This document shows, one piece after another, positions 2,140 to 4,297 of a stretch of 4,505 nucleotides of DNA. The position numbers and the translations under genes were made by a program. The stretch lies in IMG/VR virus record IMGVR_UViG_648276643_000012; one strand, written 5' to 3'. The notes under the pieces were generated by a model. That model saw only the letters and a list, made by a program, of their open reading frames with translations. It searched no databases and was not told the DNA's origin. Source of the stretch: a virus. Lineage: Duplodnaviria > Heunggongvirae > Uroviricota > Caudoviricetes. Each line of letters starts with the position of its first letter. Within the stretch, counting starts at the first letter, position 1.

Positions 2140-2328
2140 CTATTTCACCTTAATCTCAACATTTCGCAGCTTTAGCTCTACTGGCAGGTCTGACTTTCCG
2201 GTTAATGCTAATGCGAGATTTTCTGGAGTAATGAGAGCAGTTATTGTTCTACCCATCGCAAGGCGGATAATCAGCCTTATCTCTTCGTCACAAGCGCCAG
2301 GGCGAATAATTGATATTTGTCCGTTCAC
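2140..2328 (-). CDS. Small hypothetical protein (62 aa from GTG; 76 aa if the upstream ATG at 2370 is used)
   Basis: GTG at 2328 lies 1 nt after the TGA of the upstream gene, with AAGGAG 6 nt upstream. The alternative ATG at 2370 would overlap the upstream gene by 41 nt and has no SD. TAG at 2140-2142, 2 nt before the next gene's ATG. It fills an otherwise empty slot in a tightly packed operon. No family recognised. Confidence 0.45.
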   Translation of the reverse strand: MNGQISIIRPGACDEEIRLIIRLAMGRTITALITPENLALALTGKSDLPVELKLRNVEIKVK

Positions 2329-2329
2329 C

Positions 2330-2848
2330 TCACTCTCCTTTAATGCGAATGCCAGCGGCGCGGGAATCATTCCATCGCTTTACTTCTTCACGAATTACGT
2401 CAATGCATTCTTTCGAATCCATTAGGTAATCTTCATCAAAAAGACGTTCCTGTTCGTTTTCTATCGCAACAATGATTGCTTCAACTAACTTTTGTGCCTG
2501 AGAACCACTTTCTAACTCTGCTATGCGCTTACTCCCATCAGAGATAACACCTTCGTAATATTCACGCTGCTCGTTGAGTTTTGATTTTGCTGCCTCCAGT
2601 TCGTCCAGTAGTGCAATCACATCAGGGTCACTGTCATCAACTACTGTTACGCGTGATTTTTCATAATGTTCGTCGGCAAGTGTTCGACCAATTTTGAAAT
2701 CTCCATCACCACCATAACTGGAGCAGGCATAAACGACATGTGCTCCAGATATACGCTGTATTGACATTTCCTCGCCACAAACAGAGCATTCAGGTACTGG
2801 CTTAGGTGAATAACGTTCCCGTAGCGTCTGATAATCAATCTTGCTCAC
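2330..2848 (-). CDS. Hypothetical phage protein (172 aa) with N-terminal CxxC Zn-ribbon-like motif and coiled-coil; possibly ead/Ea22-like
   Basis: GTG at 2848 overlaps the TGA of the methyltransferase gene (GTGA) with AGGAGG 7 nt upstream. Contains PECSVCGEE...H...YACSS (C-x2-C ... H ... C), an acidic stretch (VVDDSDPD) and the segment ALLDELEAAKSKLNEQ, which resembles a motif I associate with ead/Ea22-like proteins (from memory, unverified). Stop TGA at 2330-2332. Confidence 0.7.
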   Translation of the reverse strand: MSKIDYQTLRERYSPKPVPECSVCGEEMSIQRISGAHVVYACSSYGGDGDFKIGRTLADEHYEKSRVTVVDDSDPDVIALLDELEAAKSKLNEQREYYEGVISDGSKRIAELESGSQAQKLVEAIIVAIENEQERLFDEDYLMDSKECIDVIREEVKRWNDSRAAGIRIKGE

Positions 2849-3330
2849 TGGTTGCCCTCCTTCATAAAAATAATCCAGTGGGTCTTGTCACCCTTTCCTG
2901 TTCGTTGACCGATAACAGGCTTTCTGTCGGTCAGTGCCAATATCTGGCGAACAGGTATTTGCGTTTCATTCCATTTAAAAATCAGAACGCCGTATGGCCG
3001 CAACACACGAAAGGCTTCTTTAAATCCCTGCCGCAAATTATCACGCCAGGTATCTTTATTCAGCCGTCCATATTTCTTTCCCATCCAGGCGTTATCACCA
3101 ACACGCTCAAGATGCGGAGGGTCGAATACAACAACCGGAAACGATGCGTCTGCAAATGGTAATGCACGAAAATCTGCTGTCAGGTCAGGGCTAATTATCA
3201 GCCGTCGTCCATCACACAATGTGTGCTCTTCCTTTCTGATATCGCTAAATATCGCCCGGTCGTCATTCTTATCGAACCAGAACATGCGACTGCCACAGCA
3301 CATGTCGAGGATTGTTGCATGTCCAGTCAC
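2845..3330 (-). CDS. Small SAM-dependent DNA methyltransferase (about 161 aa), amino-methyltransferase type with DPPH catalytic motif; probably orphan
   Basis: GTG at 3330 overlaps the TGA of the upstream gene (GTGA) with AGGAGG 6 nt upstream. The track's ATG at 3363 (172 aa) lacks an SD and would overlap the upstream gene by 37 nt. Motif I-like ILDMCCGSRMF (encoded about 3280-3312) is followed some 55 aa later by DPPH (encoded 3112-3123). Stop TGA at 2845-2847. Confidence 0.8.
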   Translation of the reverse strand: MTGHATILDMCCGSRMFWFDKNDDRAIFSDIRKEEHTLCDGRRLIISPDLTADFRALPFADASFPVVVFDPPHLERVGDNAWMGKKYGRLNKDTWRDNLRQGFKEAFRVLRPYGVLIFKWNETQIPVRQILALTDRKPVIGQRTGKGDKTHWIIFMKEGNQ

Positions 3331-3677
3331 TGGCTGCCTCCTTTGCGAATCTGTTCCGCCCATTCTTCAAGGGATTTCTCTGCATATTCACCGGACAGGC
3401 CATCAATTGGATGCGACTCATTAGCTAACTCTTCTTTCGCTGACAGAATCATGCGTGTAACATCGAAAACTTCAGCCAAAGGCTTATTGATAAATCCGTG
3501 ATTGAAAGCAGCAGCAAGACGGCTTGCGGTATAGTTAATACCCTCGTTGCGAGCCTCAGCACGTACTTCATCGAATTTACGCACCAGATACTCAGCATTT
3601 GTTTCATTCACTTTCAGATCTCGTGGTACACATTTCCCGCGAAGAAACCCTTCCATTTCGAAAACATTCATGCGCAT
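3327..3677 (-). CDS. Hypothetical protein (116 aa); YfdS-like by position downstream of the yfdR-like gene
   Basis: ATG at 3677 with GGAG 8 nt upstream; start overlaps the end of the HD gene by 10 nt. TGA at 3327-3329. No recognisable catalytic motif. The assignment rests on synteny with the yfdQ-yfdR-yfdS-yfdT cluster of E. coli K-12 CPS-53/KplE1, not on sequence recall. Confidence 0.7.
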   Translation of the reverse strand: MRMNVFEMEGFLRGKCVPRDLKVNETNAEYLVRKFDEVRAEARNEGINYTASRLAAAFNHGFINKPLAEVFDVTRMILSAKEELANESHPIDGLSGEYAEKSLEEWAEQIRKGGSQ

Positions 3678-4204
3678 TTGCGTAACTCCGATAACTCGTT
3701 AAAACGTTCCATAAACATCCCGTAGGCATGGCCCGGTGCCAGTGGAATCACGTTGAACATCTCTGTTGCCGGGATGCCTTCCAGTACAGGCCAGAAAGAG
3801 CCATCATCAAGCCCGAGATCGCGGCGTTCGGTTGCCAGCATGATGAGATCGGCATATTTCACGGGCGTACTCATAACCGGGGGTAACCCGTATTTCTCAC
3901 GGATTACGGCGTCTATTTTTTCTTCCATCTGTTTATAGTCAGGAAGAAGGCGTTTCAGTGGAGCGGGGATGTCCTGGCAATACGCTTCTGTTGCATCATG
4001 CATTAACGCTTCAAAAGCAAATTCCTGCGGTACCAGCTGGCTGCAAAGAACCACATGTTGGGCGACGCTGTAGAAGTGCGAAAGATGACCGGCAAAGCGA
4101 CAGATATTTGAAAGGGAAACCGCGATATCGTTAATATCGATGTCGTCTTTATTTATCCTGTCATAATAAAAATGCTTACCGGAAAAAGTTTTAATAAATG
4201 ACAT
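3668..4204 (-). CDS. yfdR: HD-domain phosphohydrolase, 5'-deoxynucleotidase YfdR-like (178 aa)
   Basis: HD signature present: H in VAQHVVL, then HD in EALMHDATEAY. The protein as a whole resembles E. coli K-12 CPS-53 prophage YfdR as I recall it. ATG at 4204 is preceded by GGAG with a 6-nt spacer (GTGGAGAACAAAATG). The track's GTG at 4231 is a 9-codon upstream extension without an SD. Stop TGA at 3668-3670. Confidence 0.85.
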   Translation of the reverse strand: MSFIKTFSGKHFYYDRINKDDIDINDIAVSLSNICRFAGHLSHFYSVAQHVVLCSQLVPQEFAFEALMHDATEAYCQDIPAPLKRLLPDYKQMEEKIDAVIREKYGLPPVMSTPVKYADLIMLATERRDLGLDDGSFWPVLEGIPATEMFNVIPLAPGHAYGMFMERFNELSELRKCA

Positions 4205-4297
4205 TTTGTTCTCCACGTATATGCGCTGCACCGCGCTGAATTCTGGTAAAAGGAAGCCCTCACCATCCGGCGATTATTGAGTTAATTACGTTTCCAT

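Follow-up and report, generated by a model that had tools for sequence, protein, structure and literature searches.

A 161-residue M.NgoMXV-related methyltransferase in the early-left region of a lambdoid Escherichia coli prophage

The stretch of DNA that was analyzed (4,505 nucleotides; IMG/VR record IMGVR_UViG_648276643_000012, Caudoviricetes), referred to below as the window, carries on its minus strand, at 2845..3330, the coding sequence of an S-adenosylmethionine (SAM)-dependent amino-methyltransferase of 161 amino acids. In our view the protein is probably (roughly 60%) an M.NgoMXV-type orphan enzyme that methylates amino groups in DNA; it would be made early in the lytic cycle and would modify the phage DNA against restriction, with N4-methylcytosine (m4C) as a likelier product than N6-methyladenine (m6A) and with a short or degenerate recognition site. 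The enzyme would then be a stand-alone catalytic core of ~150 residues with the motif order of the gamma class (motif I, then DPPH) and without a target-recognition domain (TRD). Its gene belongs to the leftward early operon (pL/ea) of a lambdoid prophage of E. coli, in which it would be translationally coupled to the neighbouring genes, silent in the lysogen and expressed early after induction or infection. The preference for cytosine-N4 over adenine-N6 derives from homology, recognition of the site would fall to loops within the catalytic domain, and the likely effect would be that replicating phage DNA is shielded from the restriction enzymes of the host.

Family membership and motif order

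The methyltransferase gene was recognized on basis of its open reading frame (ORF) and translation and of the RefSeq, PHROG and PADLOC data. The ORF is intact and runs from a GTG start at 3330-3328 to a TGA stop at 2847-2845; read from the GTG at 3330, its translation is VTGHATILDMCCGSRMFWFDK...VVVFDPPHLERVG...KTHWIIFMKEGNQ. A Shine-Dalgarno sequence (AAGGAGG; 3337-3343, minus strand) lies 6 nt upstream of the GTG, and the RefSeq coding sequence WP_000145690.1, a 'class I SAM-dependent methyltransferase', has ends identical to those of the window ORF, with the same GTG start. An alternative in-frame start, the ATG at 3363 that would yield a protein of 172 residues, was discarded as it is unsupported by the N-termini of the homologues. 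A first-pass annotation, made from the sequence alone, had already given the coordinates, the length of 161 residues and the motifs ILDMCCGSRMF and DPPH, all of which the translation bears out.

The protein was matched by PHROG 954 ('DNA methyltransferase'; E 1.5e-87) and, end to end, by MTase_II (E 7e-73) and the orphan-methyltransferase model (E 6e-49; a profile of 153 positions) of PADLOC, a set of anti-phage defence-system models in which the family is represented by PDLC03288/PDLC03730. A Pfam scan at E values up to 1 recovered only Methyltransf_11 (E 4e-4 over 22 residues, a borderline match) and Methyltransf_25 (below cut-off), and no match to Dam (MethyltransfD12), MT-A70 or N6_N4_Mtase. 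The test for Dam-like or MT-A70 membership that had been proposed in the first-pass annotation was thus negative, and the profiles point to a separate gamma-type family. The best NCBIfam score was 18 bits against a cut-off of 242, with weak matches to HemK/RsmD-like and UbiE/BioC-like enzymes that were all sub-threshold. As for the RNA amino-methyltransferases (Trm11, RsmD and HemK-like), the NCBIfam matches stayed below cut-off and the structural model contained no RNA-binding domain. The gene is already annotated and is an ordinary member of a catalogued, widespread and little-studied family. The isoelectric point of the protein (9.3), considered as a clue to nucleic-acid binding, was uninformative given a family median of ~7.

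The motif I region (ILDMCCGSRMF; residues 7-17; 3280-3312, minus strand) covers the end of strand beta-1 and the SAM-binding glycine loop, and motif IV (FDPPH; residues 69-73; 3112-3126, minus strand) holds the catalytic tetrapeptide of the amino-methyltransferases, with a His at the usual aromatic position. LDMCCG (residues 8-13) thereby precedes DPPH (residues 70-73) by ~60 residues, the two being located at strands 1 and 4 of the model, which is the gamma-type order. The order of the beta class (DPPY first, FxGxG last and a central TRD) was not found, as the protein displays the reverse. The N6-adenine methyltransferases of the M.TaqI type share with it the class I Rossmann fold and the succession of a SAM loop and a (D/N)PPx motif at the end of strand 4, but M.TaqI possesses a C-terminal TRD of ~180 residues, carries NPPY and makes m6A; the model of the window protein, moreover, lacks the helices that normally follow strands 1-3. 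In an alignment of 71 diverse sequences 70 of the 161 positions were at least 90% identical. Highly conserved were L8, D9, C11, G13, D30, R32, D70, P71, P72, H73, K86, Y87, G88, E105, R108, K119 and W120, with all four residues of the DPPH tetrapeptide being invariant. Within motif I (family consensus LDxCCGSRMFWFDK) the residues L8, D9, C11, G13 and M16 were invariant and C12, S14, R15, F17, W18, F19 and D20 were conserved for at least 90%.

The connection with M.NgoMXV (M.NgoDCXV in REBASE; AJ004687) was made via a streptococcal proxy. In a 2013 review in Nucleic Acids Research the gamma class is described as methylating mainly adenine, with M.NgoMXV and its homologues as the rare cases in which cytosine is the target; for M.NgoMXV the review refers to Bujnicki & Radlinska 1999 and to a mutagenesis study of its catalytic aspartate from 2001. 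A preprint on Streptococcus iniae QMA0248 reports 95% identity between the methyltransferase QMA0248_1949 and M.NgoDCXV (AJ004687.2, GCCHR), an orphan m4C methyltransferase of the gamma class, and mentions homologues in S. iniae SF1. The SF1 prophage Javan272 encodes a family member of 153 residues (P0372), which aligns with the window protein over 151 residues at 49% identity (E 2e-54) and also contains DPPH. A shorter-start version of the S. iniae protein (126 residues) resides in the same 90% cluster as a Joint Genome Institute entry named 'DNA N-4 cytosine methyltransferase M.ngoMXV'. Membership of the M.NgoMXV/M.NgoDCXV family is well supported by these sequence relations, albeit indirectly. 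M.NgoMXV shares with the window protein the size of ~150-160 residues, motif I before DPPH, the lack of a TRD and the orphan status, and its proxy shows full-length similarity and falls in the same PHROG and PADLOC model families. The difference is that only about half of the residues are shared and that the window copy resides in an enterobacterial lambdoid early-left operon. Among the species-representative genomes no Neisseria copy was found, and all matches of more than 90% identity to the S. iniae protein were from Streptococcus (mitis, oralis, suis and others; L092-L127). Judged by these matches the enzyme described for N. gonorrhoeae looks like a streptococcal prophage gene, which may point to a strain-specific horizontal transfer or raises a question of clone provenance. 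A tandem 5-methylcytosine methyltransferase gene, looked for beside the streptococcal copy, was not seen in locus L101.

Size, distribution and selection

More than 7000 homologues were recovered in a word-indexed search, and an exhaustive search of 50% representatives yielded 2058 clusters, 229 of which scored below 1e-30. The conserved core comprises ~150 residues (members of 153 and 155 residues are examples), and many homologues are longer (200-320 residues). The N- and C-terminal extensions of these longer homologues do not align with one another, and therefore the family has no family-wide TRD. The N-terminal extensions are probably start miscalls or fusions, as their mutual unrelatedness suggests, and the longer homologues were ruled out as TRD carriers on these grounds and because the C-terminal tail of the 248-residue forms is absent from the window. 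The remark in the first-pass annotation that no TRD was visible therefore holds.

The tail itself comprises ~85 extra C-terminal residues in 248-residue enterobacterial homologues (e.g. P0010 residues 161-248; L039:4481-4744; L062:4478-4741). It corresponds to phrog_16025 (E 9e-49), and a further match covers the final ~70 positions of phrog_111, an unrelated 'DNA methyltransferase' family of 345 positions. By tblastn the same tail was found at the C-terminal end of genes annotated as 3'-phosphoadenosine 5'-phosphosulfate reductase (ST64B sb44, 118970_sal3 and Eeyore) and of a gene annotated as N-6-adenine methyltransferase (Citrobacter phiNP). This occurrence on different DNA-modification enzymes may indicate a portable targeting or DNA-binding module.

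The methyltransferase gene is present in 1068 of 5426 complete E. coli genomes (~20%), including O157:H7 strains. DNA similar to the window occurs in 450 phage records, many of them of Shiga toxin (Stx)-converting phages, and the protein was recovered by tblastn in 256 phage records, Stx-converting phages included. The hosts of the phages span at least six phyla (Proteobacteria, Actinobacteria, Firmicutes, Bacteroidota, Fusobacteria and Verrucomicrobia), at 47-64% identity; by host the values were 64% for a Gordonia phage, 60% for an Acinetobacter phage, 57% for a Fusobacterium phage, 54-57% for Staphylococcus phages and 46-55% for phages of Listeria, Porphyromonas, Enterococcus, Streptococcus, Akkermansia and Bacteroides.

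Closer relatives were compared in 80 IMG/VR loci, being viral relatives with a methyltransferase 81-97% identical to the window copy. FDPPH was intact in all 80, and the median ratio of nonsynonymous to synonymous substitution rates (dN/dS) relative to the window copy was 0.09, indicative of purifying selection. The flanks varied: the upstream gene, which encodes a protein of 116 residues, was present in 14 loci and the downstream Ea22-like gene in seven, in five of which it was directly adjacent. Given the intact motif, the low dN/dS and the variable flanks, the gene represents a selected, self-contained mosaic module without a fixed partner. Truncated forms do occur, as two of the 80 loci encode versions of 94 residues and split PHROGs (11564 and 6151) exist. 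In ten distant phages the gene was always located among replication, recombination or other early genes (RecT, SSB, RusA, helicase, primase, integrase), and in four of these it directly abuts another DNA methyltransferase gene, namely in BatStarr (gp65/66; Gordonia), Javan522 (0025/0026; S. pyogenes), Chantilly (Akkermansia) and ZF40 (gp20/21; Pectobacterium). The functional, plaque-forming phages A006, BatStarr and ZF40 are among the carriers. The designation 'minimal orphan DNA methyltransferase' in the first-pass annotation agrees with this placement in replication and recombination modules, often beside another DNA methyltransferase, with the DNA methyltransferase class in PHROG and PADLOC and with the 49% identity to the M.NgoMXV proxy.

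Substrate, product and role

An AlphaFold2 model, based on the alignment of 71 sequences, consisted of a single Rossmann domain and was of high confidence (predicted local distance difference test 90.7, predicted TM-score 0.87). The strand order fits that of a class I methyltransferase, with motif I after strand 1 (E7-11) and DPPH at the end of strand 4 (E64-70). Helices were predicted only at 82-87, 95-109 and 127-131, those that usually follow strands 1-3 being missing, and the modelled Rossmann fold is unusually stripped and helix-poor. A Foldseek search against viral models recovered one family member that matched well (TM 0.90), the remainder being generic, and the best neighbours in the PDB were 2p8j (a methyltransferase of the small-molecule type), nucleomethylin, the tRNA N2-methylguanine (m2G) methyltransferase Trm11 (6zxy, TM 0.61) and Bud23. 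The model thus confirms the methyltransferase fold and does not settle the substrate.

Several observations weigh against an M.NgoMXV-type DNA methyltransferase. The PDB structures recovered by Foldseek were only generic class I methyltransferases (TM 0.55-0.61), with M.TaqI (1aqi) appearing only at rank 48 (TM 0.49). Sequence searches of the PDB, with the single sequence and with a 13-sequence profile, likewise gave nothing significant, the profile showing a weak match to RsmD (2ift). The link to M.NgoMXV itself runs via a statement in a preprint and a database product name, and with 49% identity neither the target base nor the site has to be that of M.NgoMXV. In the S. iniae lysogen, the same preprint states, GCCHR was not specifically methylated (<3% of the sites), which could reflect silence of the prophage, with which it agrees without proving activity, or a weak or different activity. 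Finally, the cross-phylum identity is unusually high for a sequence-specific DNA methyltransferase. The first-pass annotation cautioned that the sequence does not reveal the target base; this caution stands, and homology favours N4-cytosine over N6-adenine by inference only.

We infer that DNA is the substrate and that m4C is the product. The main contender for the latter is m6A, produced by a DNA N6-adenine methyltransferase of possibly very low specificity that would act as a broad anti-restriction shield like M.EcoGII. The (D/N)PP(Y/F/W/H) motif is typical of m6A enzymes, the gamma class mainly methylates adenine, the missing TRD fits a low specificity, and M.EcoGII provides a precedent for lambdoid prophages that carry silent, non-specific adenine methyltransferases. 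M.EcoGII and M.EcoGI are, like the window enzyme, orphan methyltransferases encoded by E. coli prophages, and are kept silent during lysogeny, with activity presumably following induction; they are, however, beta-class proteins (DPPY, then TRD, then FxGxG) of 349 residues that methylate adenine non-specifically and show no sequence relation. Identity with M.EcoGII was rejected, considering the size of 161 residues and the opposite motif order. In addition, m4C is the reported product of the one relative that has been studied, and the prophage has an adenine methyltransferase of its own already, a Dam-type 'phage N-6-adenine-methyltransferase' whose gene lies in the rightward nin region; this enzyme is likewise an orphan, but of another family and another operon, and the 161-residue protein has no Pfam Dam match. 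Taken together, we consider an adenine product unlikely.

It is also quite unlikely, to our judgement, that the substrate is not DNA but an RNA (a tRNA or rRNA base), a nucleotide or another small molecule, with alteration of host translation or evasion of RNA- or nucleotide-based defence as the purpose. The structural neighbours fit such a substrate, as they include RNA methyltransferases (Trm11, which makes m2G10, Bud23 and nucleomethylin) and small-molecule methyltransferases, and the low-scoring hits from NCBIfam and the PDB profile search, to HemK/RsmD-like and UbiE/BioC-like enzymes, do so too. The lack of a TRD, a cross-phylum conservation that would suit a universal substrate and the S. 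iniae lysogen without a clear DNA motif can be read in the same way. The structural matches, however, are weak (TM ~0.6 or less) and generic, and all NCBIfam scores remain far under the cut-offs. The m2G methyltransferases of the Trm11/RsmD type also have a (D/N)PP(Y/F) motif after an N-terminal SAM loop, but the window protein lacks a THUMP or other RNA-binding domain and the sequence matches to them are insignificant. Moreover, the studied member of the family is reported to methylate DNA at m4C, and the consistent placement among DNA replication and recombination genes and the repeated adjacency to DNA methyltransferases argue for DNA. A somewhat broader possibility, which we regard as rather unlikely, is an unconventional activity: either near-nonspecific DNA methylation, perhaps of single-stranded replication or packaging intermediates and amounting to a pan-restriction m4C shield, or methylation of some universal substrate other than DNA, for instance a base in RNA or a signalling nucleotide. 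It is raised because a helix-poor core of ~150 residues without a TRD shows high identity across at least six phyla. If true, the protein would be one of the smallest self-sufficient nucleic-acid amino-methyltransferases, meeting its substrate in a new manner, via an exposed beta-sheet face.

Variable flanks and purifying selection contradict two further explanations. In one, the enzyme would be the modification half of a restriction-modification or two-gene system, or would need a separate specificity subunit, for instance the coupled 116-residue protein. Catalytic subunits without a TRD, such as HsdM, rely on separately encoded specificity subunits, and stop/start overlaps couple the methyltransferase to both neighbours. 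This arrangement is nevertheless very unlikely, as the upstream gene is retained in only 14 and the downstream gene in only seven of the 80 loci and distant phages have entirely different neighbours; the 116-residue protein was rejected as a specificity partner on account of its variable presence. Among the neighbours of the gene in the window (Ea22-like, the 116-residue protein and YfdR) no match to a nuclease or a PADLOC defence system was found, in keeping with the first-pass annotation, which had noted no adjacent restriction endonuclease. A cognate endonuclease gene, as expected for a Type II restriction-modification system, was not found beside the methyltransferase, and the flanks vary among the close relatives. 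In the other explanation, the gene would be an inactive remnant without current function in a decaying prophage. Its prophage residence, where many prophages are defective, and the truncated copies and split PHROGs would agree with that, but the intact ORF with its strong ribosome-binding site, the retention of the catalytic motifs in 80 of 80 loci at a dN/dS of ~0.09, the 70 near-identical positions in the diverse sequences and the occurrence in plaque-forming phages make it extremely improbable.

A role in anti-restriction is plausible, and expression would fall early in the lytic cycle. The gene is very common: roughly every fifth complete E. coli genome contains it, as do temperate phages from many phyla, and what is known of the family's biochemistry seems to come from one enzyme that was investigated in about 1999-2001. 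Should m4C be formed upon induction by the enzymes of the enterobacterial clade, this would represent an overlooked DNA modification of lambdoid phages, with a bearing on restriction evasion and on the methylomes of lysogens. The puzzle is how a TRD-less core of ~150 residues selects its site, and the enzyme could serve as a compact methylation tool.

Prophage setting, junctions and neighbouring genes

The whole window is 100% identical to the early-left region of a prophage in the chromosome of E. coli BCE049 (L001:9157-13661). The prophage in the matching record is lambdoid and inserted near zur, lexA and dinF. The leftward early block contains, in order, genes for a PrtN-like protein, a 3'-5' exonuclease, a DUF551 protein, a small ORF, the Ea22-like protein, the methyltransferase and the 116-residue protein, and yfdR, yfdQ and yfdP. 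The methyltransferase gene is on the same strand as the three yfd genes, and the block runs back to the region of an XRE-family (cI-type) repressor.

The GTG of the methyltransferase overlaps the TGA of the upstream gene as GTGA (3330-3327), and such a stop/start overlap implies, as far as the sequence goes, translational coupling. At the other end lies a second junction, AAGGAGGGCAACCAGTGA (2845..2862, minus strand), in which the stop codon TGA of the methyltransferase and the GTG at 2848, where the downstream Ea22-like gene starts, overlap; it is near-identical to the first and a unique match, with 0 expected by chance. Both boundaries (3327-3346 and 2845-2862, minus strand) are AAGGAGG-N6/7-GTGA stop/start overlaps, and the proteins encoded upstream of the two junctions share the ending ...K(G/E)G(S/N)Q. 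The repeated junctions could also be recombination points for module swaps in the mosaic ea region.

The upstream gene (3327..3677, minus strand; phrog_614) has an unknown function and is, judged by its presence in only 14 of the 80 loci, not a conserved partner of the methyltransferase. Further upstream in the same leftward early operon lies a gene for a YfdR-type HD 5'-deoxynucleotidase (3668..4231, minus strand; yfdR in RefSeq), with a match to PF12917 (E 2.3e-5) just under the Pfam cut-off. The downstream Ead/Ea22-like gene (2330..2848, minus strand; PF13935, E 3e-23) is an uninterrupted ORF of 172 residues, yet in RefSeq the identical record has it as two partial pseudogene pieces, the gene probably being a chimera made from a pair of Ea22-family pieces.

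Elsewhere in the same prophage, outside the window (L001:19452-20105 and 23343-24517), the nin-region Dam-type gene is found and, past the Q antiterminator, one gene annotated as the binding subunit of a subtilase-family AB5 toxin and another as a scabin-related ADP-ribosyltransferase. On the plus strand of the window, at the end of the prophage, an ORF of 139 residues that is open at the window edge (1-420; phrog_19071) and an ORF of 57 residues (460-633) match no Pfam family; a gene for a Panacea-domain protein precedes them in the identical record, and this position hints that the attachment-site end holds a small accessory or toxin-antitoxin-like cassette. An ORF of 76 residues (2140-2370, minus strand) shows a weak match (E 2e-5) to the last 35 positions of phrog_11564, of which the first 93 positions correspond to the N-terminal half of the methyltransferase. 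Accordingly, phrog_11564 appears to have been built from truncated methyltransferase fusions with the 76-residue gene.

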